DNA from: Opitutia bacterium
Lineage (GTDB): Bacteria > Verrucomicrobiota > Verrucomicrobiia > Opitutales > UBA953
NCBI GenBank assembly: GCA_037129735.1
Contig: JBAXUJ010000001.1
Coordinates: forward strand, 1-36,461
Direction of reading: 5' to 3'
DNA: 36,461 nt
Position numbers and translations under genes: made by a program. The notes beneath the pieces are model-generated. The model saw nothing but the letters and a program-made list of their open reading frames with translations, had not been told where the DNA came from and did no database searches. Each line of letters starts with the position of its first letter. The first letter of the stretch is position 1. Below are positions 6,034 through 36,082 of this stretch, piece after piece.

Positions 6034-6037
6034 TATT

Positions 6038-17120: not shown

Positions 17121-18122
17121 ATGTCACACTCCACCCATCCGTCGGCAAAATTATTATCCGTAGTTGTACCTTGTTATAATGAACAAGAAGTCATTATGGA
17201 AACTGTAAAGCGATTAAAAGCTTTTGCGACTAATCTCAAAAACTTAGATGTAGAATTTATTTTTGTTGATGACGGCTCGCGTGATCAAACCTTGGCTATG
17301 CTGAAATCATTTGCTGCGTCTGATTCACGAATTAAGATTATTAGTTTTTCTCGGAATTTTGGGCAACAAATGGCGATGACGGCAGGAATAGATGCTACCA
17401 GTGGCGACGCCGTTGTACTTATTGATGCTGATTTGCAAGACCCTCCAGAAGTTATTCATGATATGATCAAAAAATGGGAAGAAGGATTTGATGTAATTTA
17501 TGCAACTCGCACAGAGCGTCCTGGTGAGTCGGTGTTTAAATTAGCGACGGCACGTTTATTCTACCGCCTACTTAATAAATTAACCTCTGTGCCTATTCCT
17601 TTGGATACCGGAGACTTCCGTCTGATGAGTCGTCCCGTGGTTGATACGATTAGGACGATGCCAGAGTGCGATCGTTTTTTACGAGGTATGGTTAGTTGGG
17701 TTGGCTTTAAACAAGTAGCACTTCCTTATAAGCGCTCTGAAAGATTTGCTGGCGAAACTAAATGGTCTGTAGTGAAGTTACTATTTTTAGCGATTGATGG
17801 AATTATTTCATTCTCCAACAAACCGCTAGATTTTATACTCAGTTTGGGGATAGCTCTTACTAGTCTTACTACGTTAGGCATTATAGGAATTTTTGTACAA
17901 AAACTGATTTACGATGTTTGGGCGTCGAACAACTTAATTTTGTTGTTGGGCGTCGGCTTCTTCAGTGGGATTCAATTATTATCACTAGGTATTGTGGGTC
18001 TTTATATTGGGCGTAATTATAATCAGATTAAAGACCGCCCGCTCTATATCGTGCAAGAGTATCTAGGGTTTTCAAAAGAATCTCTCGCGCAAAGCAGAAG
18101 TCCTGTAGTCATTCAAAAATAA
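17121..18122 (+). CDS. GT2 polyprenyl-phosphate glycosyltransferase (GtrB/ArnC/DPM-synthase-like)
   Basis: 333 aa. SVVVPCYNEQEVI, VDDGSRDQT, FSRNFGQQMA, DADLQDPPE, and two C-terminal TM helices. This is the standard architecture of bactoprenol-phosphate sugar transferases. Confidence 0.9.
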   Translation: MSHSTHPSAKLLSVVVPCYNEQEVIMETVKRLKAFATNLKNLDVEFIFVDDGSRDQTLAMLKSFAASDSRIKIISFSRNFGQQMAMTAGIDATSGDAVVLIDADLQDPPEVIHDMIKKWEEGFDVIYATRTERPGESVFKLATARLFYRLLNKLTSVPIPLDTGDFRLMSRPVVDTIRTMPECDRFLRGMVSWVGFKQVALPYKRSERFAGETKWSVVKLLFLAIDGIISFSNKPLDFILSLGIALTSLTTLGIIGIFVQKLIYDVWASNNLILLLGVGFFSGIQLLSLGIVGLYIGRNYNQIKDRPLYIVQEYLGFSKESLAQSRSPVVIQK

Positions 18123-18139
18123 CCATTTCATCATTCAAA

Positions 18140-19774
18140 ATGTTTTCTAATCGTTTTATTAAAAGCGGTAGCCGCTTTTTAGTTTCAGGGTTATTTTTAA
18201 CCTTATGTGATTTTGCCATATTCAAGCTTCTCGGTCACTGGGGTGTTTCGGCCTCCTTAGCCCGTATTGAGTCATTCGCTATTTCTTTTTTATTATCTTT
18301 TGTTTTGCATCAACGATGGACCTTCCAATCTGGTCAGTCTTGGACTAAGTCCTTCCTGCCGTATTTACAGTCCCGCATCGGTTCATTTTTATTAGCCCAA
18401 GTCGTGTTCATGCTTATGCATGATGGACTGGGTTTAACTGATAATCTTTCATTTGCGATTCAGTTACCCATTCAGCCTCTCGTAAATTTTCTCGCGGGCT
18501 ATTTTTATGTTTTTAAGGAACGCGAAAATGAAACTTCTATACCCGACAAGCGTTGGTGGCTCGAAGTAATTTTTGCCCCGATACTTCTGTTTATTGTCTT
18601 AGTTATTCCTTTTAGAAATAAACAGATGCAGCACCCCATCTGGGTTGTACCCTACACTTCGGGAGCTGCCAATTGGTCGATTGGGCAACCTTGGAAGGTG
18701 GCAATTGGTGATGATCAGATTTACAAAAGCAAATCCATTGGAGAGCGCTGGGTGGATGTGGCTCAGCCCGTCCAAGATGCCTCAAAGCTAATTGAGTTCT
18801 CTGCCCATGATGAAGGCTGGATGTGGGTCTTGTGGTTCACCCGAAAAATCTTTCCATTTCTTAGTGATTTAAGAGGTGTAGTTTTATTAGCCGCCATTTT
18901 GCACTTAGGTTTCTCTGCTTTAATTCTTAATCGGCTCAACCCTGGCTGGCAGAGGTATCTATTCACTTTTATATTTGTCTGTAATCCACTCACTCTGTAT
19001 TTATTATCTTTCCCTTATTACTATTATTGGCAGGCCTTTCCCTCACTTCTTGCCATTATAATTTGGCAGTATCGTGATAAAACAAATATTTGGTATCTAC
19101 CGGGAATAGCATTATTTTTGGCGCTCTGTGTCGCGGTTCGCCCTAACGTTATTTTCGTTTCTTTACTGGTTCTTGGCCTTGCTCTTTATTTTATTCGCCA
19201 TTGGTTCACTTACTTAAGTGTCTTAATCTTTGCCCTTTGTTTTTTATCGATACCTAAGGGGAATAAAATGTTTTGGCACACCGTTTATGCTGGGCTTGGG
19301 GCTTATCCTAATACGAATGGACTCTATTTATCAGACGAGTCCTCTTATGACTCATTTAAGAAAAAAACTGGAATAACCCTCGATGCTGCCTTGGGAGGAA
19401 ATTACTACAATTTACAGTTACGTGAAGAGTACAATCAGCACCTGAAAACAGAATCAATCGAATATATAAAGACTCATCCCGTTCAAAGTCTGAGAAACGT
19501 GATTCTTAATCTCAGCATCGGAATTTTTTCTCCCTATAAGCCCAACTCGCCTTCCTGGATTTATTATACCCAAGCGTTTCTTGGATTAATTTTCTTAGCA
19601 GGATTAATCTGGCTACGCCAATGGCCGGTTCTGATTGGGCTTAGTTTGTCTCTGGGGTGTATTGCATTAATTTACCCACCTATTGCTGCGTATGTCGTGG
19701 GTAGTTTAGTTTTTACTGGCTGGGGCTTAACCCAAGTTGTCTCACAGATCGTTAAACGATTTAAAAAAGTATAA
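18140..19774 (+). CDS. GtrA-like domain fused to a large polytopic (GT-C-like) membrane domain
   Basis: 544 aa. The first ~125 aa look like the GtrA family (4 TM; HQRWTF and YFYVFK motifs). The remaining ~420 aa have many TM helices and periplasmic loops. The gene lies directly 3' of the GtrB-like GT2. Confidence 0.6.
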   Translation: MFSNRFIKSGSRFLVSGLFLTLCDFAIFKLLGHWGVSASLARIESFAISFLLSFVLHQRWTFQSGQSWTKSFLPYLQSRIGSFLLAQVVFMLMHDGLGLTDNLSFAIQLPIQPLVNFLAGYFYVFKERENETSIPDKRWWLEVIFAPILLFIVLVIPFRNKQMQHPIWVVPYTSGAANWSIGQPWKVAIGDDQIYKSKSIGERWVDVAQPVQDASKLIEFSAHDEGWMWVLWFTRKIFPFLSDLRGVVLLAAILHLGFSALILNRLNPGWQRYLFTFIFVCNPLTLYLLSFPYYYYWQAFPSLLAIIIWQYRDKTNIWYLPGIALFLALCVAVRPNVIFVSLLVLGLALYFIRHWFTYLSVLIFALCFLSIPKGNKMFWHTVYAGLGAYPNTNGLYLSDESSYDSFKKKTGITLDAALGGNYYNLQLREEYNQHLKTESIEYIKTHPVQSLRNVILNLSIGIFSPYKPNSPSWIYYTQAFLGLIFLAGLIWLRQWPVLIGLSLSLGCIALIYPPIAAYVVGSLVFTGWGLTQVVSQIVKRFKKV

Positions 19775-23235: not shown

Positions 23236-23541
23236 ATGATTACACGTTCACAAATTTTAGTTCTTATACTCAATCGCCTAAAGTCCTTGGGCGTTGAGTT
23301 GCAGAAGCCTGCGTTGATTGCGGCAACTGAACAAACTCGACTCTTTGGCGACAAGGCCGATCTCGATAGTATGGGATTAGTGACTTTAATTGCGGACCTT
23401 GAATATGACCTCCAACAAAACCTAGGACGCACCGTTTCTCTGGTAGACGAAAAAGCCATGAGTCGACTCACTTCACCGTTTCGCCGTGTCGATTATTTGG
23501 CGGATTATTTAGTAGAACTACTCAACGAGCCCAAATCTTAA
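23236..23541 (+). CDS. Acyl/peptidyl carrier protein (ACP-like)
   Basis: 101 aa. DLDSMGLVTLIADLE has the phosphopantetheine Ser motif (Ser45, nt 23368-23370), followed by an amphipathic helix. Confidence 0.65.
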   Translation: MITRSQILVLILNRLKSLGVELQKPALIAATEQTRLFGDKADLDSMGLVTLIADLEYDLQQNLGRTVSLVDEKAMSRLTSPFRRVDYLADYLVELLNEPKS

Positions 23542-23542
23542 A

Positions 23543-24235
23543 ATGCCTAATGCTATTATTACAGGAACTTCGCGCGGGCTCGGCCGTGCCCTAGCAGAAA
23601 AACTACTGAATGAGGGCTGGAAGGTTTGGGGATTTTCTCGGAGTCCATCGCCCATTAAACATGAACATTACTGCGAGCATTTAATCGACATTACCGATGA
23701 AGCCGCGGTGCAAAATGCTATTAGTCAGATCAGTCAAAGTTCATCAGATATTGATCTATTAGTGAATAATGCCGGTGCTGCCTCCATGAACGCTTTTTTA
23801 CTTACTCCTGCTAGAACTGCGGAAGCCTTGATGCGTCTCAATTATTTAGGGACCTTTCATTGTCTGCAGGCGGCGGGTAAGTTGATGGTTCGTCAACGTC
23901 ATGGTTTGGTTATTAATATTACAACGGTGGCGGTGCCCCTGGTGCTTGCAGGCGAAGCAGCTTATGCGGCGAGCAAAGCAGCGGTAGATTCGCTGACCAA
24001 AGTCACCGCCGAAGAATTTAAGTCACATGGCATCACGGTGATTGGTTTAGGGTTTGGACCGATGGACACGGATTTAATCAAAGCAGTGAATAAAGAAAAA
24101 ATTAACCAAATTAATCAGCGTATTAATCGCCCTGAGGGTACCACGTTAAACCAAGCGGTAGATTTTATTTTCGAACACCTAGACAAAAAATCCATCACCT
24201 CGGGCGATTTATATTATTTAGGCACAATTCCGTAG
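23543..24235 (+). CDS. Short-chain dehydrogenase/reductase (3-oxoacyl-ACP reductase-like)
   Basis: 230 aa. ITGTSRGLGRALA (TGxxxGxG), NNAG, YAASKAA (YxxxK). Starts 1 nt after the ACP stop. Confidence 0.85.
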   Translation: MPNAIITGTSRGLGRALAEKLLNEGWKVWGFSRSPSPIKHEHYCEHLIDITDEAAVQNAISQISQSSSDIDLLVNNAGAASMNAFLLTPARTAEALMRLNYLGTFHCLQAAGKLMVRQRHGLVINITTVAVPLVLAGEAAYAASKAAVDSLTKVTAEEFKSHGITVIGLGFGPMDTDLIKAVNKEKINQINQRINRPEGTTLNQAVDFIFEHLDKKSITSGDLYYLGTIP

Positions 24236-25579
24236 ATGAATTTTTGGTTACACGAGCGATTCAAAAAATTTAATACTAAGCCAGCCCTAGTCGGTACTTG
24301 GGGTGAGTTTTCGTATGCCGACTTGGCAAACTTAACCGAAAAAATCGAAAGTGAGTTTAAGGGCTTAGCTGGATCTGCACCGACAACGATTGGTTTAGTG
24401 GGGGACTGGTGTCCCGCTAGCGTTGCTTGGTTGGTCGCCTCCGAGCGTTTACAACACTGGGTTGTGCCGATGACAGATCACGCACAGGAGACCGCGGAAA
24501 AACTTAATCAAATTCATGCCCAGTGGGTGGTCATTACTGAGGGAGCAACTTGGAAAATTTATCCACGCGCAGCTGTCGGTAAATTAGAATTAGATAACGC
24601 CCAATCACTTCCGACATCACACGCAGGCTTAATTTTATTTTCTAGTGGTACGAGTGGTAGTCCGAAAGCGATGCTTCAGGATTTGAGTAACTTACTCAGT
24701 ACTTACGAGTCTCGGCATGAAAATTCCTTAATCATTTTGAGTTTACTCGGTTTTGATCATATCGGTGGTATTAACACATTGTTAGGAGGATTGGCCGCGG
24801 GTTCCCTCATGGTGATTCCCGAAAGTCGAGCCCCCGATCAAGTAGCAGCTATCATCAAAAAATATCACGTAGCGATTCTTCCCGCGACCCCCACTTTCCT
24901 GAATCTACTTTTACTGGCCGCCGCCGACCGCTTAACGGATTTAGCTTCACTCCGTTTAATTACTTATGGAACTGAACCGATGCCTGAGGCCTTGTTGGCT
25001 CGTCTACGTCAGGTGCTTCCCTCGGTTCGTTTAATTCAAACTTTTGGTACGACGGAAACAGGAATTTTAAAAACCGAGAGTCCCGACGGCGATTCCAATT
25101 TTTTAAAAATTAATGATCCCAATGTTGAGTGGAAAATAGTGAATGAAGAGTTGTGGCTAAAAACCCGTACACAGATTCGAGGATATTTAAATGCATCAAA
25201 CGAAAAATTCACAGACGATGGCTGGTTCATGACGGGCGATAAAGTGGAGGTTGGACCTAATAACACTCTACGAATTTTAGGACGCTCCGGTGAGATGATC
25301 AATGTCGGTGGACAAAAGTTAATGCCTACTGAAGTTGAGTCGGTCATCTTAAGTGTGCCAGGCGTAGTTGACTGCAGAGTCTTTGGAGAAAAAAATGCGA
25401 TGGTTGGTCAAACGGTCGCCGTTGATATTGTTGCTAGTGCCGGACAGAATTGGGAAACGTTACGCGCTTTAATCAGACAAACCTGTCGCCAAGCCCTATC
25501 CACCTACAAAGTGCCTACGCGATTGAACTTAGTGAGTGCGATTTCTACAAACCGCCTTAAAAAACAGAGAACGAGTTAA
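24236..25579 (+). CDS. AMP-dependent synthetase/ligase (adenylate-forming; acyl- or aminoacyl-carrier-protein ligase)
   Basis: 447 aa. LILFSSGTSGSPKAM (AMP-binding core), YGTEPMP, GWFMTGD, GRSGEMINVGGQKLMPTEVE. It is shorter than typical acyl-CoA synthetases. The start abuts the upstream stop. Confidence 0.85.
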   Translation: MNFWLHERFKKFNTKPALVGTWGEFSYADLANLTEKIESEFKGLAGSAPTTIGLVGDWCPASVAWLVASERLQHWVVPMTDHAQETAEKLNQIHAQWVVITEGATWKIYPRAAVGKLELDNAQSLPTSHAGLILFSSGTSGSPKAMLQDLSNLLSTYESRHENSLIILSLLGFDHIGGINTLLGGLAAGSLMVIPESRAPDQVAAIIKKYHVAILPATPTFLNLLLLAAADRLTDLASLRLITYGTEPMPEALLARLRQVLPSVRLIQTFGTTETGILKTESPDGDSNFLKINDPNVEWKIVNEELWLKTRTQIRGYLNASNEKFTDDGWFMTGDKVEVGPNNTLRILGRSGEMINVGGQKLMPTEVESVILSVPGVVDCRVFGEKNAMVGQTVAVDIVASAGQNWETLRALIRQTCRQALSTYKVPTRLNLVSAISTNRLKKQRTS

Positions 25580-25593
25580 AAGCCCGCAGCTCT

Positions 25594-26667
25594 ATGCAAA
25601 TAACACTCTCACATTTTCGTCTAGCTGGTTTGGCCGTTTCTACGGGGGCCGACAACCGAGACTATATAAAAGACGGACTGGCTCATGGCATCAGCCTCGC
25701 TCATTTAGAACGTGTCGCTAAAACAATCGGGCTAAAAGAACGCAAAGTAGCGTCAGCAGGTGTGACGGCGTTGGATTTATGTGAAGATGCTAGTCGTCGA
25801 CTTTTGGCTGCGATGGATATCGATGTCTCCACAATTGATGCCATTATTTTCGTCACCCAAACTCCTGATCATTCTCAGCCTAACAACGCATGTCTTTTGC
25901 ATGGTCGCTTGGGTTTAGCTAAATCTTCCATCGCTTTTGATTTATCGTTGGGTTGTTCGGGTTGGGTTTATGGACTTCATCAAGCGGGTTTACTTTGCGC
26001 CCATGGCGGGGCAGGGCGCGTTTTACTCTGTAGTGGTGATACCTTAAGTCGGTTAACTCATCCACAGGACCAGTCCATGAACCCTCTATTTGGTGATGCA
26101 GGCTCGGCCGCGATTGTAGAGCGTACAGGCTCTCACACTCCTTGGTATTTTGTTTTGGGGTCCGATGGAAAACTCTCCGCGACGATTAAAGTACCTGCAG
26201 GGGGCGCACGCTTACCGACTTCATCAGAAACTCGTGTAGAAAGTAAAGGCTCTAACGGTAATATTCACCACGCTGAAAATCTAATGATGGACGGCGCCGA
26301 GGTTTTTAATTTTTCACTTCGTGAAGTTCCCGCTGCTATCAATACAGTTATTAAAAACGCTCAGTGGAGTTTAACCGAGGTCGATGCATTGGTCTTACAC
26401 CAGGCTAATAAATTTATTATCGAAAATATTGCGACTAAGTGTGGATTAAAAGCTACTCACGTTCCGTCGAACTTAGTAGAGAAATACGGCAACCAAAGCT
26501 CGGCCTCTATTCCAGCCGCATTGATTGAGGGCCTAGGGGAGAAACTCGCTAACCGTTCGCAGAAAATTGTGGGCTGTGGATTTGGGGTAGGCTTGTCTTG
26601 GGCAGCTTTTGCCTCTGAGATCGGGCCAGTCATAACGTGTCCTATTCAGCCCTATCCTTTAAAATAA
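25594..26667 (+). CDS. 3-oxoacyl-ACP synthase III (FabH/KAS III family)
   Basis: 357 aa. Cys-His-Asn triad contexts: SLGCSGWVYGL, VLHQANKFIIENI, GNQSSASIP. Confidence 0.85.
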   Translation: MQITLSHFRLAGLAVSTGADNRDYIKDGLAHGISLAHLERVAKTIGLKERKVASAGVTALDLCEDASRRLLAAMDIDVSTIDAIIFVTQTPDHSQPNNACLLHGRLGLAKSSIAFDLSLGCSGWVYGLHQAGLLCAHGGAGRVLLCSGDTLSRLTHPQDQSMNPLFGDAGSAAIVERTGSHTPWYFVLGSDGKLSATIKVPAGGARLPTSSETRVESKGSNGNIHHAENLMMDGAEVFNFSLREVPAAINTVIKNAQWSLTEVDALVLHQANKFIIENIATKCGLKATHVPSNLVEKYGNQSSASIPAALIEGLGEKLANRSQKIVGCGFGVGLSWAAFASEIGPVITCPIQPYPLK

Positions 26668-26894
26668 TGTCGTTAACTTTCGAATCCCATCTTCAAGCAC
26701 TTCAAAAAGAAGTCGATGTACTTGTGGGAGTGTCACCCGATGCTCCCTTAAGCGGTCTGCCACAATGGGACTCACTGGCAATTTTATTAGTGATTTCTCA
26801 TTTTGAGTCTACTTACAAAATGAGTGTGACCGGAAAAGAAATTCGTCAGTGTAAAACCATTCGAGAACTTATTAAACTTATCCCTCAATCATGA
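26667..26894 (+). CDS. Second acyl carrier protein-like protein
   Basis: The track starts at 26637 inside the KAS III gene. ATG 26667 (TAATG overlap) gives a 75-aa protein with LPQWDSLAILLVISHFE (Ser36, nt 26772-26774). Confidence 0.6.
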   Translation: MSLTFESHLQALQKEVDVLVGVSPDAPLSGLPQWDSLAILLVISHFESTYKMSVTGKEIRQCKTIRELIKLIPQS

Positions 26895-27517
26895 AAAATC
26901 TTTTTATTGTCGGTGCTGGCGGATTTGGTCGCGAGGTTTATGCCTGGATCAAGCAACATCCTGAATTTAACAAGACTTGGGTTCTAGCTGGATTCTTGGA
27001 TGACAATCTCGAAGCCCTTAATCCTTTTGGTAATTTCGCCAATGTCTCAGTTTTAAAGAATCACCAAGTTTCACCCGCTAACGTTTATATCTGTGCCTTA
27101 GGACTCCCCCTGGTTAAATCGAAATTACTTGCTCCATTGATTGAGCAGAAGGCAGAGTTTATTTCTTTTATTCATCCGACGGCTGTCATCGGCGAAAGAG
27201 TAAAGATAGGTCGCGGAGTGGTTGTTTGCCCCGGAGCGAGTATTTCCGTGGATATTTCGATTGGCGATTTTTCTATGATTGGACCCAATACTACCATCGG
27301 ACATGATGGCACTATTGGCGCATGGTGTACGCTGTGTGCACAGTGCGATGTCACTGGTCGTGTTACCATTGGCGACGGAGTGTTTTTAGGAAGTCGGGTT
27401 TCCATTATACCCAGCAAAAAAGTTGGCCGTGGCTCTATTCTTGGTGCTGGTTCCGTGGTAATATCCGATGTCCCCGAGGGAGTGACGGTGGTCGGTAACC
27501 CCGCGCGTATTTTATAA
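26891..27517 (+). CDS. NeuD/PglD-family sugar N/O-acyltransferase (Rossmann-like N-domain plus LbH)
   Basis: 208 aa. LFIVGAGGFGREVYAWI...AGFLDD, then the hexapeptide repeats IHPTAVIGERVKIGRGVVVCPGASIS...VVGNPARIL. ATGA overlap with the ACP gene. Confidence 0.85.
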   Translation: MKNLFIVGAGGFGREVYAWIKQHPEFNKTWVLAGFLDDNLEALNPFGNFANVSVLKNHQVSPANVYICALGLPLVKSKLLAPLIEQKAEFISFIHPTAVIGERVKIGRGVVVCPGASISVDISIGDFSMIGPNTTIGHDGTIGAWCTLCAQCDVTGRVTIGDGVFLGSRVSIIPSKKVGRGSILGAGSVVISDVPEGVTVVGNPARIL

Positions 27518-27524
27518 ATCTCAT

Positions 27525-28253
27525 ATGAAAAAATTTATCTTATATTTTGGCGGGTTTTTATTACTAAGTATTTTTGCTTTAATCATTTATACGGAGTTTT
27601 TAAGTTCCCGTTCACGTCGCTTCACGGGAAGCTTGGAAAAAGTTTTACCACCCGACGGTTTTGACGGTTGGAAACGTGAATCTATTCCGCTGGGCGATTC
27701 AAATGCCGCCAAAGCTAATGTGCAGGGTATTTTAAATTACAGTCAGGCTGTTCAGTATTTATATACCAAAAATAAATCGCAGTTCCTCATCTATGTTGCC
27801 TATTGGGAGCCTTCTACTGTTTCCGTGGCGGATGTAGGAACGCATAACCCCGATTCTTGCTGGGTGAATAATGGCTGCACGAGAACTGACCGCGACTTTG
27901 CCGTCGCTGGAAAAGTGGGTTCACGCTTACTTCAGCCCTACGAATATGGACAATATATTACGCCGCGTGGTGATCGTCAGAATGTGTTATTTTGGCACCT
28001 AGTAAATGGGCAGCCTAATCGTTATGCGGATCAAGAACAAGGCTGGCGTGCTGGACTCAAGGGGCGCATGGAAAGACTTCCCTTGCTCATCAAAGACTTC
28101 AAAGAATTTGGACTTAACCAAAAAAACGAGCAGATGTTTATCCGTGTTTCCACCTTTTTACCCGTAAAAAATTTACTCGCTGATCCAGCGAACGAGAAAA
28201 TTTTTAATGCTTTAGAAGAAATTGGAATCTTTCAAAACCAAGCTTGGAAATAG
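27525..28253 (+). CDS. EpsI-family-like (DUF3485, exosortase-associated) membrane-anchored periplasmic protein
   Basis: 242 aa with an N-terminal TM. LPPDGFDGWKRESIPLG, LIYVAYWEPS...GTHNPDSCWVNNGC and VLFWHLVNG follow the pattern I recall for EpsI proteins (lP..GW.., vaYY.., H.P..ClpG.GW). Confidence 0.55.
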   Translation: MKKFILYFGGFLLLSIFALIIYTEFLSSRSRRFTGSLEKVLPPDGFDGWKRESIPLGDSNAAKANVQGILNYSQAVQYLYTKNKSQFLIYVAYWEPSTVSVADVGTHNPDSCWVNNGCTRTDRDFAVAGKVGSRLLQPYEYGQYITPRGDRQNVLFWHLVNGQPNRYADQEQGWRAGLKGRMERLPLLIKDFKEFGLNQKNEQMFIRVSTFLPVKNLLADPANEKIFNALEEIGIFQNQAWK

Positions 28254-28291: not shown

Positions 28292-29710
28292 ATGATTCCT
28301 TTATACGTTGATTTAGATGGCACCTTACTTCGTGGTGATTCCTTGCACGAGGCTTGCACCCGTCTACTTTTAAAGCCGAGCAAGTTTTTGAGCGTGGCTT
28401 TGTCGTTACTACGTGGAAAAGCTGCCTTTAAACAAAAAGTAATCGAATCCGTTGAGCTCCCCGCCGCAACATTGCCTTATCGCCATGATTTTATTGAATG
28501 GCTTAAAATACAAAAAGCATCTGGCCGTAAACTCATTTTAGCCACTGGAGCTGACCGTGAAATTGCCACACGTGTTGCGGAATATTTAAATCTTTTCGAC
28601 GAGGTCTTGGCTAGCGAGGGGAAGATTAACATTACCGGAGGAAATAAATTAGATGTCATTAAAGCACATGCTGGAAATCAGCCTTTTGCCTATGCTGGCA
28701 ATGACACCATTGACCTGATTATTTGGAATGAATGCGCTTCGGTTGTTCTAGTGGGGGATGGTGTTAAATATGTTAAAAAAATTAAACCCTCCGTCCTTAT
28801 CGAAAAACAATTTTCTGATGAGGTTAACAAACCCGCTAAAATCCTGAAGTTATTACGTCCGCATCAATGGGTAAAAAATATATTAATTTTCCTACCTGCC
28901 GCCGCTGCTCATCAGCTAACTTCACTGCCGATTATAAAATCAGACTTAGCCTTATTCGCAGCCTTTTCACTCTGTGCCTCAGGTGTTTATGCCGCCAATG
29001 ATTTATTAGATTTACCGAGTGATCGAAAGCACGCTCATAAGCATAATCGTCCTTTAGCTTCAGGTGCTGTCAGCATTCCTGTAGGTTTATTTTTAGCGAT
29101 AACGCTTCCTGTGGCTGGTTTAATCACTGCAACCTACACGGTGGGCTGGGGTGCCACAGCCATGGTAGCTTCCTATTGGATTATTACTACCTATTACTCC
29201 TTCAGTGGTAAACGCGTGCCGCTCTTAGATGTTTTTCTCCTTGCTGGACTTTATACATTCAGAGCGGTTGCCGGGTCCTTGCCGATTAATTCAGGTATGT
29301 CCGAGTGGATGGCTGCCTTCTTGCTCTTTTTATTTTTCAGTTTGGCATGTCTCAAACGCTTTTCTGAATTATTAAATTTACCTGCTAATCAAAACGAAAA
29401 AATAGCTGGTCGTGGTTACATCAGAGAAGATTACCAATTAATGGCGCTACTAGGAGTCGGATCGGCGTTCGCCTCAACTTTGGTTGTTTGCCTCTACGCT
29501 GCTAGTCCCTCGGTGACTGGACTTTATGCCAAGCCATTTTATTTAATGGCGATAGCTCCCTTGGTGTTATTCGGCTTGGCGCGCTTTTGGCTGCAAGCTT
29601 GGCGTGGCGAGTTGCACAACGATCCCGTAGTCCATGCCTTAAAAGATGGAACATCATACCTATTGATCCTGTTGTCTGCCCTAGCCATGTTGGCAGCAAC
29701 AAGCCTATAA
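28292..29710 (+). CDS. HAD-IB phosphatase domain fused to a UbiA-family polyprenyl-phosphate phosphoribosyltransferase (DPPR synthase-like)
   Basis: 472 aa. N-terminus MIPLYVDLDGTLLRGDS (HAD motif I) ...GNDTIDL. The C-terminal ~290 aa have 8-9 TM helices with YAANDLLDLPSDRKHAHKHNRPLASG (NDxxDxxxD; nt 28996-29022), very like Rv3806c-type enzymes. Confidence 0.8.
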   Translation: MIPLYVDLDGTLLRGDSLHEACTRLLLKPSKFLSVALSLLRGKAAFKQKVIESVELPAATLPYRHDFIEWLKIQKASGRKLILATGADREIATRVAEYLNLFDEVLASEGKINITGGNKLDVIKAHAGNQPFAYAGNDTIDLIIWNECASVVLVGDGVKYVKKIKPSVLIEKQFSDEVNKPAKILKLLRPHQWVKNILIFLPAAAAHQLTSLPIIKSDLALFAAFSLCASGVYAANDLLDLPSDRKHAHKHNRPLASGAVSIPVGLFLAITLPVAGLITATYTVGWGATAMVASYWIITTYYSFSGKRVPLLDVFLLAGLYTFRAVAGSLPINSGMSEWMAAFLLFLFFSLACLKRFSELLNLPANQNEKIAGRGYIREDYQLMALLGVGSAFASTLVVCLYAASPSVTGLYAKPFYLMAIAPLVLFGLARFWLQAWRGELHNDPVVHALKDGTSYLLILLSALAMLAATSL

Positions 29711-29714
29711 ATTT

Positions 29715-31070
29715 ATGCCAGATAACCTTATAGCCGGTTGGGGAAATTTGCCTATTTCAAATGCCGAGGTGAAAACACCTGATACTGACCTTGGTCTTTC
29801 CAACCAAGTATCATCGGGTTCGCAGTTTATAAGTCGTGGGCTTGGTCGTGCCTATGGTGATGCAGCTTTACCCTCAAAAGAGAGCGGCGCGGTCATAAGC
29901 GGACTTGGGCTAAAAAGATTTTTATCTTTTGATGAGTCTTCGGGTATTTTAGTCGCTGAGTCGGGCGTTAGCTTGGCCGAAATAATAAAAGTTTTTTTAC
30001 CTCGGGGATGGTTTCTTCCCACCGTGCCTGGCACAAAATTTGTTACTTTAGGCGGAGCGGTGGCTGCAGATATACACGGAAAAAACCATCATATCGACGG
30101 CACGCTGGGTGTTCACGTGGTCTGGCTTGATCTGGTTATTGCCAATGGGGAAACCCTCCAATGCTCGCCTTCCCAAAATGTAGATATTTTTCGGGCTACA
30201 GTGGGTGGCATGGGTTTAACTGGTCATATCATCCGTGTGGCCATTCGCCTTCGTCGTGTCCCTAGCGCCTATTGCAAAGTTAGATATATCAAAAGTAAGA
30301 ACCTTGCTCACACCCTTTCTCTGCTGTCCGAGCATGATGTAAATTATCGTCACACAGTCGCATGGATGGACTGTCTGGCCAGTGAGGAAAAATTAGGCCG
30401 TGGGGTTTTAATGTTAGGCAATGAAGCAGAAACAACGGATTTATCTCAATCACAGCTAAAATCCGGACCACATAAGTTACCCAATCGCCCACAGCTTTCG
30501 GTACCCTTTAATTTCCCCTCCTGGTTTCTGGGTAATACTTTTGTCAGTATTTTTAATTTTCTCTTCTATGGTTTGGCTAAAAATACGGTAAAGATTGTAG
30601 ATTACGAAAAATTCTTTTTTCCACTGGATACAATAAAACACTGGAATCGAATTTATGGTCGTCGGGGCTTCGTTCAGTTCCAAGCCTATTTTCCTGATGC
30701 CACGGCAGAAAAAGGCTTACAAGAGTGTCTTGAGGCAATCAGTCGAGTAGGCTTAGCATCGTTTTTGGCCGTATTAAAGCGTTCAGGCAAAGCGAATGAA
30801 TTTCCGTTATCTTTTTTAGATAAAGGCTATACCTTGGCTTTAGACATACCGGGTGACCCCAAAAAACTTCCGCTATTGATGAACGAACTAGATGCTATTC
30901 TAGCAAAATATAACGGCAGAATTTATTTTGCTAAAGATGCCATGGTGAATCCGGATTTAATCCCTACCATGTATCCAGGACTCAATGAATTTAAGCGTAT
31001 CAAGGCTTCGGTAGATCCCAAGGGGCTTATTCAATCACGTCTTTCTAAGAGACTCCATTTACATGACTAA
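29715..31070 (+). CDS. DprE1-like FAD-dependent polyprenylphospho-ribose 2'-oxidase
   Basis: 451 aa. GWGN, RGLGRAYGDAAL, LPTVPGTKFVTLGGAVAADIHGKNHH, TVGGMGLTGHI, FFFPLDTIKHWNRIYGRRGF, RIYFAKD. Collinear with M. tuberculosis DprE1 as I recall it. Confidence 0.85.
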   Translation: MPDNLIAGWGNLPISNAEVKTPDTDLGLSNQVSSGSQFISRGLGRAYGDAALPSKESGAVISGLGLKRFLSFDESSGILVAESGVSLAEIIKVFLPRGWFLPTVPGTKFVTLGGAVAADIHGKNHHIDGTLGVHVVWLDLVIANGETLQCSPSQNVDIFRATVGGMGLTGHIIRVAIRLRRVPSAYCKVRYIKSKNLAHTLSLLSEHDVNYRHTVAWMDCLASEEKLGRGVLMLGNEAETTDLSQSQLKSGPHKLPNRPQLSVPFNFPSWFLGNTFVSIFNFLFYGLAKNTVKIVDYEKFFFPLDTIKHWNRIYGRRGFVQFQAYFPDATAEKGLQECLEAISRVGLASFLAVLKRSGKANEFPLSFLDKGYTLALDIPGDPKKLPLLMNELDAILAKYNGRIYFAKDAMVNPDLIPTMYPGLNEFKRIKASVDPKGLIQSRLSKRLHLHD

Positions 31071-31791
31071 ACTAAAAGCTGTTCTTATTGTTGGGGCAAC
31101 CTCACCGATTGCACGGGCCTATGCGGACCGATGTGCTCAAGCGGGACACCCTTTAATCCTGGCGGGCCGTGATTTAAAAGAAATCAATAGCACGGCTAGT
31201 GATTTAGCGATTCGCTATGAAGTTAAAACAGACGTAGTATTTTACAACGCCGCTGAACAAGGGGCAGGAGTATCGCTTGCCAAACAAGCTTTAGCCCAAG
31301 ATCTCGCCAGCGTGGTTGTATTTCATGGTATTATGGTTGGCCGTGAAGGCTTCTCGGAAATGTTGCAGATTAACTGCGGCTCGATTGCAGAATTATTTGA
31401 AGCGCTGATTGATGGTGCTGTAGCATCTAATCAAAAGCCCACTTTGGCTGCGGTATCCTCTGTGGCCGGAGATCGTGGTCGCCAATCTAATTATCCCTAT
31501 GGTGCATCTAAAGCTGCTCTGGATGCCTATTTATCGGGTTTAAGAAATCGTGCCTATCCACTGGGTATCAATGTCATCACCATTAAGCCTGGTTTCGTGC
31601 GAACCCGTCTCACTGAAGGAAAAGTAAATCCGAAATCACCCTTACTAGCTTCACCTGAAAAAGTGGCTGGAGATATTTTTAATGCCGTTCAGTCGGGTCG
31701 TAGTATTTGTTACACTCCCTGGTTCTGGGCTTATATTATGTGTATTATTCGTTCTATTCCGGAGTTTATTTTTAAAAGGCTGAAACTGTGA
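31063..31791 (+). CDS. DprE2-like SDR (polyprenylphospho-2'-keto-pentose reductase)
   Basis: 242 aa. VGATSPIARAYA, YGASKAAL, KPGFVRTRL, and the C-terminal tail WFWAYIMCIIRSIPEFIFKRLKL resembling the Rv3791 tail. 8-nt overlap with the DprE1-like gene. Confidence 0.75.
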   Translation: MTKLKAVLIVGATSPIARAYADRCAQAGHPLILAGRDLKEINSTASDLAIRYEVKTDVVFYNAAEQGAGVSLAKQALAQDLASVVVFHGIMVGREGFSEMLQINCGSIAELFEALIDGAVASNQKPTLAAVSSVAGDRGRQSNYPYGASKAALDAYLSGLRNRAYPLGINVITIKPGFVRTRLTEGKVNPKSPLLASPEKVAGDIFNAVQSGRSICYTPWFWAYIMCIIRSIPEFIFKRLKL

Positions 31792-32189
31792 TTACGGCCA
31801 CCCAGATTTTTTGGCGGTATTTATTGTTCTGTTTATTAGCGATCATCGCTAATTTAGGGCTCCAAGCGATTGCCCACGAAATAGTGCACACGCCTGATTG
31901 GTTTTCCATGGGAATAGGAACCGCCGGGGGCCTAGTTTTAAAATATATCTTAGATAAAAATTTCATTTTTTTCGCAGAAAAAACTACGGCCGTGCGAGAT
32001 TTCAAACGTTTTGTTATTTATACTCTCTTTGGTCTACTGACGACATTCCTCTTTTGGTCTACCGAATGGGCCTTTATTAAACTTTGGGCTCATCCCTTCT
32101 CGCGCTATTGCGGCGGAGTTATCGGTTTGTCTCTAGGATACTATATTAAATATAACTTAGACCGAAAGTGGGTTTTTAAAATTATCTAA
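31788..32189 (+). CDS. GtrA-family small membrane protein (putative lipid-linked sugar translocase)
   Basis: 133 aa with a GTG start (GTGA overlap) and 4 TM helices. KYILDKNFIFF and KYNLDRKWVFK are the GtrA-family half-repeat endings. Confidence 0.75.
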   Translation: MITATQIFWRYLLFCLLAIIANLGLQAIAHEIVHTPDWFSMGIGTAGGLVLKYILDKNFIFFAEKTTAVRDFKRFVIYTLFGLLTTFLFWSTEWAFIKLWAHPFSRYCGGVIGLSLGYYIKYNLDRKWVFKII

Positions 32190-32198
32190 TCTTAAGCC

Positions 32199-33284
32199 AT
32201 GTTTTCCAAATTCAAAAAAAATTTTTTAGTATTTTCAGTTTTCTGGCTTGTGGCGTCAGCTACTTATTCCGGCTTTATTGCGAAGTGGGGTTTGAGGGAC
32301 TCGCCCCAGGATTATAAATATAACTTAGAAAAAATGCTAGATGGTACTGCTTATAAACCCTTTGTTTACAGACAGCTACTTCCGTCGTCGGCAAACTTTA
32401 TAGGCAATAATACACCCGAAAATTTTATAAATTTAGTAAATGAAAAATATAAATACGGGCCTTTTAGAGATTATGCTTTTTCCAGTAGTCTGATTGGAGC
32501 TCCAGCTAAATATAAATTTAAGTGGCTTATTGTATATTGGATGGGCTTTGGTATGTTGCTGGGATCTTTATACATAATACGTGGCATTCTTTCTGACCTT
32601 GGTCTTAGCCCTTTAGCTGCTGTTTTTGCTCCGTGTATATTTAGCCTATGTATGCCCATTATCCAAACCGGTGGGGGCTACGTATATGATTATAGCGAAC
32701 TCTTTTTTATGTCTTTAGCGGTCTATTTGACACAAAAGAATCGCCCCGTGCTACTCTTGCTTGTTGTTGCTTTAGCCACCTTTAATAAAGAATCATTTAT
32801 ATTTTTCCTACCTGCTCTTTACCCATTTTTACCTAAGTCCGAGCTGATAAGTAAAACACACTTTTTTTATGGGCTACAGTTTTTATTTTCAGCCTGCATA
32901 AATTTATGGATAAAAAATATCTATAGTGGCAACGAAGGTAAAATGCTAGAAATCTGGTTCACGACAAACATCCAAAATTATCTTAATCCTATTACTTATT
33001 TAAAATTTGATGGGTCTTACGGTTTACTTGCGCCTAAAGGTTTTAACATACTTACTGTTTTGTTAATTTTAATTTTAATTAAAATATCATGGAAATATTT
33101 AGACCCAAAATTGCAGAAGCATTGTTTAATCGCCTTTTTTATTAATTTCCCTCTCTTTATCATCCTTGGGTTTTATAATGAGATTCGAGGTTTAAGTCTT
33201 CTCTATATATCATTAACTTTTTTAATTGCTTATGCTATCGACAACTACGGCAAGGAATTTCCTTCAGAGCCTTTAAAGATATAA
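32199..33284 (+). CDS. Polytopic membrane protein; candidate GT-C-type transferase using the lipid-linked pentofuranose donor
   Basis: 361 aa with about 9-10 TM helices and no signature I recognise. Very AT-rich. It occupies the position held by arabinofuranosyltransferases next to GtrA/DprE1/DprE2 in mycobacteria. Confidence 0.35.
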   Translation: MFSKFKKNFLVFSVFWLVASATYSGFIAKWGLRDSPQDYKYNLEKMLDGTAYKPFVYRQLLPSSANFIGNNTPENFINLVNEKYKYGPFRDYAFSSSLIGAPAKYKFKWLIVYWMGFGMLLGSLYIIRGILSDLGLSPLAAVFAPCIFSLCMPIIQTGGGYVYDYSELFFMSLAVYLTQKNRPVLLLLVVALATFNKESFIFFLPALYPFLPKSELISKTHFFYGLQFLFSACINLWIKNIYSGNEGKMLEIWFTTNIQNYLNPITYLKFDGSYGLLAPKGFNILTVLLILILIKISWKYLDPKLQKHCLIAFFINFPLFIILGFYNEIRGLSLLYISLTFLIAYAIDNYGKEFPSEPLKI

Positions 33285-33299
33285 AAGTTTTCAATAATT

Positions 33300-34427
33300 A
33301 TGAAAAAAATCTATTTATCTGCGCCTGATATCGGTAAACTTGAGCAGGTCTACGTGAATGAGGCCTTTGCCACCAATTGGGTGGCTCCTGTGGGTCCTCA
33401 CATCGATGCCTTCGAAAGAGAATTTTCTCAGGTCGTTGGAACGAAGTATGCCGTCGCGTTATCTTCAGGCACGGCCGCTTTACACTTAGCACTCCGCCTG
33501 GCTGGGGTGACAGCGGGTGACGAAGTTTTGTGCTCTTCGCTCACGTTCATTGCTTCCGCTGCTCCGATTACTTACTTGGGCGCCCATCCAGTATTTATTG
33601 ATTCCGATGAAGTCAGTTGGAATATGGATCCCGCTTTAGCTATTGAAGTTATAGAGAAAAAGGTGCGCGCTGGTAAAACTCCTAAGGCGCTCGTCTTAGT
33701 TCACTTGTATGGACAATCCGCCGATACCCAACCGATTAAGGAGTGCTGCGATAAGCACGGCATTAAACTCATTGAGGACGCCGCCGAGGCCCTTGGAGCT
33801 ACTTATAAGAGCGGTACACCAGGTTCAATGGGTTGGGCCGGAATTCACTCCTTTAATGGTAATAAAATTATCACCACGTCAGGAGGCGGTATGCTGGTCA
33901 CGAATGACGAGAAATTAGCGACAACCGCCCGATTTTTATCCACCCAAGCTCGCGATCCAGCTCCACATTATCAACACACGACGATTGGTTATAATTATCG
34001 TATGAGTAATATTTGTGCGGGTATTGGTCGTGGTCAATTAAGTGAGCTCGGCAAGAAGGTGGCGCGACGCCGAGCGCACTTCGCCGCTTATCAAGAAGCA
34101 TTTAAAACTTTTCCTGGTGTAGCGATGCAACCCGAGGCGTCTTGGGGTAAATCCACCCATTGGTTAACCTGTTTAACAGTCGATCCAAGCAAGTCGCCAG
34201 TATCCCGTGAAGAGGTTAGACTGGCTTTAGAAAAAGAAGATATTGAAAGCCGGCCGATCTGGAAGCCCTTACACCTTCAGCCCGTATTTGCTCAAGCTGA
34301 GTATCATGGTCGTGGGGTGAGTGATAGAATTTTCGAACAAGGCTTATGTGTTCCGTCGGGCTCAGGTATGTCGGACAGCGAGCGCAATCGCGTCATTGAT
34401 TCGACGGTGAAACTGTTTGCTAAATAA
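33300..34427 (+). CDS. DegT/DnrJ/EryC1-family PLP sugar 4-aminotransferase (PglE/EpsN-like)
   Basis: 375 aa. KIYLSAPDIGKLEQVYVNEAFATNWVAPVGPHIDAFEREF..ALSSGTAALHLAL...FNGNKIITTSGGGML (PLP Lys context). Close to the B. subtilis EpsN N-terminus as I recall it. Confidence 0.9.
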   Translation: MKKIYLSAPDIGKLEQVYVNEAFATNWVAPVGPHIDAFEREFSQVVGTKYAVALSSGTAALHLALRLAGVTAGDEVLCSSLTFIASAAPITYLGAHPVFIDSDEVSWNMDPALAIEVIEKKVRAGKTPKALVLVHLYGQSADTQPIKECCDKHGIKLIEDAAEALGATYKSGTPGSMGWAGIHSFNGNKIITTSGGGMLVTNDEKLATTARFLSTQARDPAPHYQHTTIGYNYRMSNICAGIGRGQLSELGKKVARRRAHFAAYQEAFKTFPGVAMQPEASWGKSTHWLTCLTVDPSKSPVSREEVRLALEKEDIESRPIWKPLHLQPVFAQAEYHGRGVSDRIFEQGLCVPSGSGMSDSERNRVIDSTVKLFAK

Positions 34428-34449: not shown

Positions 34450-34474
34450 AAACCGCTAACGAAGCGGTTTTTTT
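34450..34474. terminator. Bidirectional rho-independent terminator between convergent operons
   Basis: AAACCGCT-aacga-AGCGGTTT: a perfect 8-bp stem and 5-nt loop followed by a T7 run on the plus strand. An A-rich 5' flank gives a T-rich tail on the minus strand. It lies between the stop codons at 34427 (+) and 34505 (-). Confidence 0.8.
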
Positions 34475-35476: not shown

Positions 35477-36082
35477 TTACTTAGCGTCACCCTCAAACTC
35501 TTCCATGGTAGCTGCCTTACTTGAATTAATATTGCTACGATTTAGGACGACAAAAAAAGTTCTTACGACGATTTTAAGATCCAACCAAAAGCTACTGTTA
35601 TCGATGTATGAAACATCGAGCGCAAATTTCTCATCCCAACTGATGGCGTTGCGGCCATTGATTTGGGCTAAACCCGTGACGCCTGGTTTCATTTCCATGC
35701 GTCGCGCCTGAAATTTATTATAGCGTGGTAAATAGCGCATCATTAAAGGGCGTGGGCCGACGACGCTCATATCTCCGATGAGCACATTCCACATTTCGGG
35801 AAATTCATCGAGCGTGGTGGATCGCAAAAATTTGCCAAAGGTGGTCAGGCGTACTTCGTCAGACAGTAGATTTCCTGCTTCGTCTCTGGCATCTGTCATG
35901 GTTCGGAATTTTACCATACGAAAGGGCTTCGCGTCTTTACCGGGGCGCTCTTGAATAAAGAAAATGGGTGAGCCGAGTTTAATCCGTACTAAAACTCCAA
36001 CGACGATTAAGAGTGGCGAAAACCCGATGAGCCAAGCCAGCGAAAAAATAATATCGAAGGCTCTTTTGAAAAAATGATACAT
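35477..36082 (-). CDS. Small monotopic phosphoglycosyl transferase (PglC/EpsL-type bacterial sugar transferase), initiating enzyme
   Basis: 201 aa. KRAFDIIFSLAWLIGFSPLLIVVGVLVRIKLGSPIFFIQERPGKDAKPFRMVKFRTM, DEFPEMWNVLIGDMSVVGPRP, KPGVTGLAQINGRN. Confidence 0.92.
   Translation of the reverse strand: MYHFFKRAFDIIFSLAWLIGFSPLLIVVGVLVRIKLGSPIFFIQERPGKDAKPFRMVKFRTMTDARDEAGNLLSDEVRLTTFGKFLRSTTLDEFPEMWNVLIGDMSVVGPRPLMMRYLPRYNKFQARRMEMKPGVTGLAQINGRNAISWDEKFALDVSYIDNSSFWLDLKIVVRTFFVVLNRSNINSSKAATMEEFEGDAK

Follow-up and report, generated by a model that had tools for sequence, protein, structure and literature searches.

D-arabinofuranose (D-Araf) is familiar mainly as a component of the cell wall of mycobacteria, and DprE1 is a leading tuberculosis drug target. 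The locus described here encodes DprE1-like and DprE2-like proteins in an Opitutia bacterium, a member of Verrucomicrobiota that probably lives in freshwater. The stretch of DNA analyzed, referred to below as the window, comprises 36,461 nt of the forward strand of contig JBAXUJ010000001.1 (assembly GCA_037129735.1). Five genes at 28292–33284 of the window encode a HAD-UbiA fusion protein (gene 1), a DprE1-like FAD oxidase (gene 2), a DprE2-like short-chain dehydrogenase/reductase (SDR, gene 3), a GtrA-family protein (gene 4), and a polytopic protein of 361 aa that is here named X361 (gene 5). Taken together, these genes probably form a self-contained module that adds a D-Araf side chain in the periplasm after polymerization of the acceptor. 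This kind of system has already been described, and the new part is the X361 family.

The class in question, as defined by Kelly et al. (PNAS 2024), consists of a polyprenyl-phosphoribose synthase (PPPRS), a transporter, and a glycosyltransferase of the C type (GT-C), with auxiliary epimerases, which determine the pentose, as optional members (PMC11127046). The transporters may be of the MATE or SMR type, and most of the GT-Cs are annotated as hypothetical proteins (PMC11127046). Such pentofuranosylation modules are found inside O-antigen or exopolysaccharide (EPS) clusters whose products carry pentofuranose; where the glycans have Araf side chains, as in Stenotrophomonas maltophilia, the module includes DprE1/DprE2 homologues (PMC11127046). 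The module in the window belongs to this described class and is not a mycobacterial oddity.

The prototype of the class is the system of Citrobacter youngae O1/O2 (ORF15-ORF14-ORF12, with or without ORF13). Its synthase ORF15 is a HAD-UbiA enzyme that makes farnesyl-P-ribofuranose from phosphoribosyl pyrophosphate (PRPP) in vitro, the 5-phosphate being removed by the HAD (‘PRP’) domain (PMC11127046). The window shares with it a HAD(PRP)-UbiA synthase whose catalytic motifs are the same, a small dedicated transporter, and an adjacent polytopic transferase, predicted here to be of the GT-C type, all inside a polysaccharide cluster. The transporter is of the MATE type in the C. youngae prototype, whereas it is a GtrA-family protein in the window. 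The characterized GT-C of this system, ORF12, accepts both ribofuranose (Ribf) and xylofuranose (Xylf) donors (PMC11127046). ORF12 is the founder of family GT136 and has 652 aa, 11 transmembrane (TM) helices, a C-terminal carbohydrate-binding module, and an EpsG-type CDD match. X361 differs from ORF12 by description, which is an indirect sign against membership in GT136: it has 361 aa and neither a soluble domain nor a carbohydrate-binding module; an EpsG signal was seen in 1 of 41 X361-family members (E 0.067). The GT-C candidates of Rhizobium sp. CCGE531, one of the loci of Kelly et al., and of R. leguminosarum plasmids (658 and 518 aa), taken as proxies for GT136, were unrelated to X361 in comparisons by hhalign and hidden Markov model (HMM), and the same was true of the GT87 domain fused to an Azospirillum synthase.

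The five functions also occur together in one operon, noeC-N-H-O-P, in Azorhizobium caulinodans, Rhizobium sp. IRBG74, and Sinorhizobium alkalisoli. On the symbiosis plasmids of the last two, the order is UbiA, GtrA-family, DprE1 (NoeH), DprE2 (NoeO), and, in the last position, NoeP, a hypothetical protein of 401 aa. The identity to the IRBG74 products is 41% for gene 1, 42% for gene 2 (NoeH), and 36% for gene 3 (NoeO). Deletion of noeP abolishes the D-arabinosylation of the Nod factor, and noeN of IRBG74 has been proposed to encode a phosphatase acting on decaprenyl-phosphoribose phosphate (PMC5080398). The noeN product (L097 3526–3948, plasmid pIRBG74a, NC_022536.1) is a GtrA-family protein in RefSeq and is 37% identical to gene 4 of the window. 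The noe operon therefore seems to be without a dedicated phosphatase, and noeN more likely encodes a flippase or hub. The noe system differs from the window in three respects: NoeC has no HAD domain, the GtrA gene stands before rather than after DprE1/DprE2, and the acceptor is a lipo-chitooligosaccharide and not a polymer. A preliminary description of the locus had likened its gene order to GtrA/DprE1/DprE2/transferase in the Rv3789–Rv3792 neighborhood. The actual order is UbiA-DprE1-DprE2-GtrA-transferase, so that the mycobacterial echo is loose and the noe operon is the closer parallel.

The mycobacterial pathway to decaprenyl-phospho-arabinose (DPA; Rv3806c, Rv3807c, DprE1 Rv3790, DprE2 Rv3791, and Rv3789) would involve the same chemistry, provides the closest solved relatives of genes 1–3, and has both a GtrA-family partner and the adjacency of DprE1 and DprE2 that is kept in the window. 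The phosphatase is a fused HAD domain in the window and a PAP2 protein in mycobacteria. The lipid in the window is probably undecaprenyl, unlike the mycobacterial decaprenyl, and the Cys that is the target of benzothiazinones is replaced by Ala. X361 is one quarter to one third of the size of the mycobacterial arabinofuranosyltransferases and would attach a side chain, not assemble an arabinan. A Gram-negative counterpart is known from Pseudomonas aeruginosa PA7/Pa5196, in which PsPA7_6245–6249 and TfpW comprise a UbiA synthase, a GtrA-like protein, DprE1, DprE2, and a GT-C that uses lipid-linked D-Araf. There, the phosphatase is a separate gene, and TfpW (646 aa), which is encoded elsewhere, polymerizes α-1,5-Araf and glycosylates pilin; TfpW has itself been proposed to act as a translocase.

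Five genes and a putative donor pathway

The genes of the module are consecutive on the plus strand: gene 1 (28292–29710, 472 aa), gene 2 (29715–31070, 451 aa), gene 3 (31063–31791, 242 aa), gene 4 (31788–32189, 133 aa, GTG start), and gene 5, encoding X361 (32199–33284, 361 aa). Genes 1 and 2 are separated by 4 nt, genes 2 and 3 overlap by 8 nt (ATGACTAA), genes 3 and 4 overlap by 4 nt (GTGA), and genes 4 and 5 are 9 nt apart, which is consistent with translational coupling. The preliminary description had proposed five consecutive, coupled genes at 28292–33284; all of the open reading frames (ORFs) are present there with gaps or overlaps of 4–9 nt, and every motif that it quoted for genes 1 and 2, as well as the tail of gene 3, was recovered. 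Identical copies of the X361 gene with the same neighbors were found on two independent ENA metagenome contigs (L001 and L002), and the five-gene arrangement is therefore not an assembly artefact. A gap of 15 nt separates the X361 gene from the downstream aminotransferase gene (33300–34427, plus strand), and the same flanking genes surround the module in both metagenome contigs.

Gene 1 has an N-terminal HAD-IB phosphatase domain (residues 1 to ~175) with DLDGT (motif I) at 7 and GNDTID (motif IV) at 136, followed by a UbiA-family membrane domain (residues ~178–472) with N236-D237-x2-D240-x3-D244 and R356/E359; NDLLDLPSDRKHAHKHNRPLASG begins at residue 236. The Pfam matches are UbiA (3e-21), HAD (2.3e-7), and HAD-IB (3.3e-4), the HAD matches covering aa 1 to ~120. 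Among the NCBIfam models, the protein passes the equivalog PRK08238 (509 bits, cut-off 351), and the next best are three decaprenyl-phosphoribose synthase (DPPRS) models at 98–132 bits, below their own equivalog cut-offs. The best chain in the PDB is 8J8J, the decaprenyl-phosphate phosphoribosyltransferase Rv3806c of M. tuberculosis (E 4.7e-21, aa 178–461). Residues D18, N247, D248, D251, D255, R366, and E369 of ORF15 have been mutagenized (PMC11127046). All of them have equally spaced counterparts in gene 1, namely D7, N236, D237, D240, D244, R356, and E359. Gene 1 is thus most likely a bifunctional polyprenyl-phosphate 5-phosphoribosyltransferase with a fused phosphoribose phosphatase, as judged from these motifs and matches. 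A quinone or heme prenyltransferase was ruled out, as the heme O synthase and UbiA models score 32 and 26 bits; the assignment of the UbiA enzyme to the DPPR-synthase type in the preliminary description agrees with this. That description had also called the donor pathway complete. It is complete with the fused HAD domain, which had been overlooked and which would supply the phosphatase step of the Rv3807c type. In a search of phage sequences with the synthase, one match only was obtained, a UbiA-only fragment.

The best PDB chain for gene 2 is DprE1 (4AUT, E 2.1e-77), aligned over aa 6–449 and thus over the full-length two-domain FAD fold. The next FAD oxidase chain that is not a DprE1 is found at E 5e-9, 68 orders of magnitude weaker, which ruled out a lactone or vanillyl-alcohol oxidase. 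The motif GGAVAADIHGKNHH begins at 113 and WNRIYG at 310. H121/K123 (DIHGKNHH) and K407 (YFAKDA) align with H132/K134 and K418 of DprE1, a His/Lys pair and a C-terminal Lys of the active site; Ala375 stands at the position of Cys387, the benzothiazinone target. Gene 2 is, on these alignments, most likely a DprE1-like polyprenyl-phospho-ribofuranose 2'-oxidase. For gene 3, the best chain is DprE2 of the DprE1-DprE2 complex (21gq_C, E 1.5e-18, aa 7–241), and the alignment takes in the hydrophobic and basic C-terminal tail (DprE2 residues 215–253), gene 3 ending in FIFKRLKL. The SDR motifs GATSPIA at 11, S132, and Y146-x3-K150 are present, and the protein is most likely a DprE2-like 2'-keto reductase. 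Gene 4 scores 136 bits with the NCBIfam model gtrA_1 (cut-off 50) and matches Pfam GtrA_DPMS_TM (9.8e-9). It is a candidate flippase or hub for polyprenyl-P-pentofuranose and a counterpart of Rv3789, PsPA7_6247, and ‘NoeN’. The DprE1-like, DprE2-like, and GtrA-family labels of the preliminary description were thus borne out.

DprE1 homologues are common, with at least 8,000 at E <= 1e-20 in many phyla. Clusters of DprE1/DprE2 and UbiA genes, with or without GtrA, were found in 65 plasmid records, mostly from Rhizobium and Rhodobacterales. They are paired with varied and unrelated candidate GT-Cs (GT39, GT87, and hypothetical proteins of 518, 530, and 658 aa), none of them X361-like. Two plasmid loci deserve separate mention. 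On plasmid AZO_p3 of Azospirillum lipoferum 4B (L089 6507–9413), a ‘UbiA family prenyltransferase’ of 968 aa is a triple fusion of GT87 (Pfam 3.4e-19), HAD, and UbiA, which joins transferase and donor synthase in one polypeptide and is followed by a small EamA transporter gene. On plasmid 11 of Legionella adelaidensis (L102 8896–10931), a DprE1/DprE2-like pair lies among fliA, lysS, the aspartate kinase gene, alaS, and recA, with no UbiA, GtrA, or GT-C gene within 9 kb.

The X361 family: genome context and predicted structure

Genome context provides the strongest evidence for the role of X361. A total of 80 X361 loci were surveyed on one-genome-per-species contigs from Burkholderiales (Paraburkholderia, Caballeronia, Massilia, Achromobacter), Methylophilaceae, Rhodocyclaceae, Acidobacteriaceae, Selenomonadaceae, Commensalibacter, Sphingomonadaceae, Ignavibacteria, Verrucomicrobiota (among them a metagenome-assembled genome (MAG), L025), and others. 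In 34 loci, the X361 homologue has a PPPRS gene at a distance of no more than 1.5 kb (24 HAD-fused, 10 UbiA only), and four further loci have one inside 10 kb. DprE1/DprE2-type genes are present in 4 of the 80: both occur in L028 and L034, and a DprE2 match only in L015 and L047. All five components are found in Paraburkholderia kururiensis (L034), while P. unamae (L028) has DprE1, DprE2, and GtrA together with two X361 paralogues. This pattern indicates that the core partner of X361 is a polyprenyl-P-ribofuranose synthase and that DprE1/DprE2 are accessories that change the sugar.

The association takes several forms. Sphingomonadaceae plasmids carry a two-gene unit in which the X361 gene overlaps the HAD-UbiA gene. 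In B. multivorans, the X361 homologue directly follows the HAD-UbiA gene; this species is among the candidate systems (Fig. S12 loci) of Kelly et al. (PMC11127046). A four-gene arrangement, X361-GtrA-UbiA-DUF212, the last being a PAP2-like phosphatase, was found in L091, and in Buttiauxella (L005) UbiA-DUF212 adjoins X361 in a locus beside a prophage. Protein P0312 is a natural fusion of a HAD-IB domain (aa 3–178) with an X361-family domain (aa 211–558; L092 560–2257 and L093 849–2546), preceded by a UbiA-only gene in L093 and followed by a DUF2142 protein in L092. In this lineage, the phosphatase domain has shifted to X361 and left the synthase, which makes for a Rosetta-stone link of synthase and X361. 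In synteny, the closest relative of the window is L090 5785–9095 (JGI contig Ga0509788_00547), which has a frameshifted X361, a 3' remnant of HAD-UbiA (74% identity), and a second, intact X361 (55%). This looks like a module that has decayed or been rearranged, as would be expected of a variable serotype determinant.

At the sequence level, the family is large and without a name. A profile search of 1.84 billion representatives returned 1,860 clusters (50% identity) at E <= 1e-3, of which 355 also reach E <= 1e-30; almost all of the members have 340–420 aa. The named homologues are all labeled ‘hypothetical protein’, and scans of Pfam and NCBIfam placed X361 and 40 relatives in no Pfam family. 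The sole curated model with a signal is NF046093, the ‘AZOBR_p60025 family cell surface glycopolymer formation protein’, which matches X361 partially (aa 111–208) at 26.3 bits and E 3.7e-6; with a cut-off of 150, X361 is not a member. Weak matches to this model were seen in 17 of the 41 family members, over the TM2–TM6 region that includes D164 and the NKE motif. The function of NF046093 itself is a contextual name only, and a literature search returned no paper on AZOBR_p60025 and, on GT136, nothing relevant besides Kelly et al. The X361 profile showed no sequence similarity to the solved EmbA/B/C, AftA, and AftD structures in the PDB, and no phage-borne X361 was found in IMG/VR.

X361 has ~10 TM helices and no soluble domain. 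The AlphaFold model, built with 41 homologues, has a pLDDT of 91.4 and a pTM of 0.91 and consists of TM1, a 70-residue loop with short helices, nine further TM helices, and a second loop of 40 residues. In a Foldseek search of the PDB, the best 15 matches were all GT-C enzymes (STT3/OST, PglB, Pmt4, ALG12), with a probability of 0.91–1.00 and a query TM-score of 0.39–0.54. The first transporter appeared at rank 29 with negligible probability. An identity as a Wzy, WaaL, or SEDS-type protein was rejected, none of these being among the structural matches. Residues P54, R58, D164, E167, K197, and E198 are invariant among 258 members, and N196, E328, and R330 also belong to this set. When the Lys-rich N-terminus is set as cytoplasmic, both large loops and the invariant polar residues, which lie in loops or at helix ends, are predicted to be periplasmic. 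This is the pattern expected of a transferase that uses a flipped lipid-linked donor. X361 is thus a candidate polyprenyl-P-pentofuranose:glycan transferase of the GT-C type and of an unclassified family, as its model suggests. The preliminary description had regarded the protein as GT-C-like and unclassified, which fits the predicted structure, the lack of a Pfam family, and the lack of a PDB sequence match. It had also placed the protein in the position of AftA/Emb. The mycobacterial arabinosyltransferases (EmbA/B/C, AftA, AftD) are absent among the 50 Foldseek matches listed.

X361 may also be distantly related to NoeP, the similarity being weak but seen in both directions and at consistent positions. 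The X361 family HMM gave weak best-domain scores of 12.5 and 9.8 bits with two NoeP sequences, above 200 shuffles and all other ORFs of 18 loci, and the single non-self phmmer match of NoeP among 349 ORFs was an X361-family member (E 1e-3). In hhalign, 96 columns were aligned, in which D164 and K/R197-E198 coincide with an identical spacing of 34 residues, at a probability of only 4–10% and E 0.003–0.011. A metagenome scan for NoeP relatives found none. Since two NoeP sequences only are available, the link stays weak, and the possible relationship is a lead and not a result.

The X361 gene also stands out in its base composition. The G+C content is 0.36 across 32001–33000 of the window and 0.43–0.45 in the neighboring genes, which may reflect the codon bias of membrane proteins or a separate acquisition.

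Proposed mechanism, alternative explanations, and significance

In the proposed mechanism, the UbiA domain of gene 1 would transfer PRPP-derived ribose phosphate to polyprenyl phosphate to yield polyprenyl-P-ribose-5-P, and the fused HAD domain would remove the 5-phosphate to leave polyprenyl-P-ribofuranose. DprE1 would then oxidize C2', and DprE2 would reduce the keto intermediate, so that the ribose is converted into its arabinose epimer and polyprenyl-P-D-Araf is formed. GtrA would help to carry the lipid-linked sugar to the periplasmic leaflet. There, X361, as a minimal GT-C-like enzyme, would transfer the pentofuranose to the polysaccharide of the surrounding operon, and if it is inverting, like the known GT-C side-chain enzymes, the linkage would be α. 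Each of these steps is proposed because of precedents in the mycobacterial DPA pathway and in C. youngae, and from these we infer the chemistry as well as the identity of the lipid, sugar, and acceptor and the anomeric form of the product.

Several observations weigh against this mechanism. The DPPRS scores of gene 1 stay under the equivalog cut-offs of NCBI, and the same holds for gene 2 with the DprE1 equivalog NF053785 (405.6 bits, the top match by a wide margin, cut-off 500), a threshold that, we assume, may be meant for enzymes closely orthologous to the mycobacterial one. Gene 3 scores highest with the generic model PRK07102 (235 bits, cut-off 267) and reaches 120 bits with the DprE2 model NF053786 (cut-off 250). 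Functional equivalence is therefore something that we infer and that the models do not certify; such scores are unsurprising because genes 1–3 are much diverged from their mycobacterial relatives. For X361, the Foldseek E-values are 0.02–0.2 in the top 15 and never <= 0.001, and it is a predicted structure that underlies the GT-C assignment. A PDB sequence search with the profile of 41 family sequences at E <= 10 returned noise and no GT-C chain. The usual catalytic base of a GT-C is an Asp just after TM1. In X361, the Asp at this position, D34, is conserved in at least 90% of 41 sequences and in less than 90% of 258, and it is therefore not invariant. Moreover, 31 of the 80 loci, with at least 3 kb of flank on each side, have no PPPRS nearby, L090 has kept X361 and lost the donor genes, being without DprE1, DprE2, and GtrA, and a second candidate periplasmic transferase (18140–19774) is encoded in the same operon as the module.

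It is conceivable, but unlikely, that the donor pathway operates as described while X361 plays an accessory part, e.g., as a flippase, as a scaffold, or in presenting the acceptor, and that the transferase is another polytopic protein, encoded at 18140–19774, 3376–4854, or 8866–10353. The weak Foldseek E-values and the position after TM1 without an invariant Asp would agree with this, and the operon does have these other unassigned polytopic proteins. In addition, the proposal of TfpW as a translocase indicates that roles in such systems are not cleanly separated, and many pairs of X361 and PPPRS have no recognizable GtrA, which fits X361 as a flippase too. However, the 15 best structural matches are all glycosyltransferases and come well ahead of any transporter, the two-gene units of the Sphingomonadaceae plasmids and B. 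multivorans have no other transferase candidate adjacent, and NoeP, in the same position of the noe operon, is required for arabinosylation. The 544-aa protein encoded at 18140–19774 directly follows a polyprenyl-P-hexose synthase of the GT2 family (PgfS/ArnC type) and thus fits a separate system of the GtrB type better. For these reasons, X361 is kept as the transferase candidate. With regard to the sugar, a module that works but transfers something other than D-Araf seems rather improbable; the DprE1/DprE2-like pair could be without activity or lead to another product, or X361 could accept polyprenyl-P-ribofuranose, and in either case a side chain of ribofuranose or of some other pentofuranose would result. 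Most X361 homologues stand by a PPPRS without DprE1/DprE2, so that the usual donor of the family is probably polyprenyl-P-ribofuranose, ORF12 takes two different donors, and DprE1 and DprE2 score under the NCBIfam cut-offs. Yet both of these genes are intact, overlap by 8 nt, and have kept their catalytic residues. Similarly diverged homologues serve D-Araf synthesis in rhizobia and in P. aeruginosa, where the enzyme is 33% identical to that of M. tuberculosis, and in the glycans surveyed by Kelly et al., DprE1/DprE2 homologues went with Araf (PMC11127046).

The acceptor might also be a different one. A lipid-linked Araf made for a protein, for the core or lipid A of lipopolysaccharide, or for a secreted oligosaccharide, with the position in the operon being incidental, is very improbable in our judgment. 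Both non-actinobacterial systems with genetic data use a pilin or a lipo-chitooligosaccharide, and many X361 homologues lie outside polysaccharide loci, as in Caballeronia terrestris (L003) and Buttiauxella (L005). On the other hand, the module stands in an uninterrupted co-directional run between sugar-modifying genes, 15 nt from the aminotransferase gene, its flanking genes are the same in the independent contigs L001 and L002, and related modules lie within O-antigen or EPS clusters with pentofuranose-containing products (PMC11127046). A D-Araf side chain on the polysaccharide of the operon therefore remains the reading that is preferred here.

A wider proposal for the family can be put forward tentatively, with about as much doubt as confidence. 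X361 may represent a large unnamed family of membrane-only GT-Cs of ~350–400 aa with a dedicated PPPRS partner in at least seven lineages, in which Ribf would be the default sugar and Araf would be transferred where DprE1/DprE2 are present. NoeP would be remote kin, the active site would comprise D164/E167 and K197-E198 rather than the Asp after TM1, and the family would deserve its own place in CAZy.

With this locus, there is further evidence for a wide use of the same donor pathway among Gram-negative bacteria, where it decorates surface polysaccharides. The X361 family is compact, abundant, and unannotated, and it is the best transferase candidate in many such systems. If its proposed role is true, X361 can serve as a minimal GT-C model for structural work, as a bioinformatic marker of pentofuranose side chains in unknown glycans, and as a small enzyme for glycoengineering. 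Cultured strains with all five genes, e.g., Paraburkholderia kururiensis JCM 10599, allow for direct testing.

The surrounding operon

The module lies in a run of plus-strand genes from 36 to 34427, beyond which convergent genes lie on the minus strand. This operon presumably makes the acceptor polymer. The pathway of the polymer is likely marked by a polytopic protein with a Wzy_C domain (14908–16062, plus strand; Pfam 3.2e-14, ~10 hydrophobic segments), of the polymerase or ligase type. An initiating polyprenyl-phosphate sugar-phosphate transferase is encoded at 35477–36082 on the minus strand (Pfam Bac_transf 7.8e-63). This bears out one half of the Wzx/Wzy operon of the preliminary description; as for Wzx, no ORF in the window matches a Wzx model, and the unassigned polytopic proteins at 3376–4854 and 8866–10353 are the remaining candidates. 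The operon also encodes GT4 and GT2 glycosyltransferases, a UDP-glucose dehydrogenase that is 89% identical to a protein of an Opitutales MAG, a UDP-GlcNAc 2-epimerase, and a NeuB-type synthase with a cytidylyltransferase.

A terminator-like hairpin (34450–34470) with an 8-bp stem and T-runs on both strands, readable in both directions, lies in the 77-nt gap between the end of the aminotransferase gene (34427) and the convergent minus-strand genes. It is the probable end of the transcription unit of the module. In a promoter and terminator scan of the region, such sites were not enriched over shuffles, so that the argument for this terminator is one of position alone.

A second system for periplasmic side chains may be encoded at 17121–19774 (plus strand). 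A GT2 polyprenyl-phosphate glycosyltransferase (PgfS-type 4.5e-90, ArnC-type 9e-52) is followed by the 544-aa protein (18140–19774), in which an N-terminal GtrA domain is joined to ~400 aa of polytopic sequence without a family. From its domains, the pair looks like a GtrB with a GtrA-GT-C fusion that acts on a sugar of the hexose type. The 544-aa protein is unrelated to X361 by BLASTP, and a single-sequence model of it could not be used (pLDDT 42).

Directly upstream of the module, a gene at 27525–28253 (plus strand) encodes a protein of 242 aa with one N-terminal TM segment and no family beyond a weak match to the exosortase-associated EpsI type B (E 0.0021). This protein is conserved in L001 and probably in L090, where an ORF of 242 aa has the same position. 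The module is bracketed by a branch for an N-acyl amino sugar (23236–27517 and 33300–34427, plus strand), which includes an ORF of 101 aa, an SDR, an acyl-AMP ligase, KAS III, an acyl carrier protein, an N-acyltransferase of the NeuD/PglD type, and a LegC-type aminotransferase. Its composition suggests a sugar with a custom N-acyl group, of the short or the hydroxy acyl type. At 4978–7525 (plus strand), a cytidylyltransferase gene precedes that of a NeuB-family synthase with a C-terminal cupin (aa 399–457), an unusual fusion; this gene pair points to a polymer with a nonulosonic acid or a related one. At the start of the operon (36–1970, plus strand), a heparinase II/III-like protein is encoded (N domain 7e-23, C domain 8e-14), possibly a polysaccharide lyase or an enzyme that modifies a uronic-acid polymer in the manner of a C5-epimerase.

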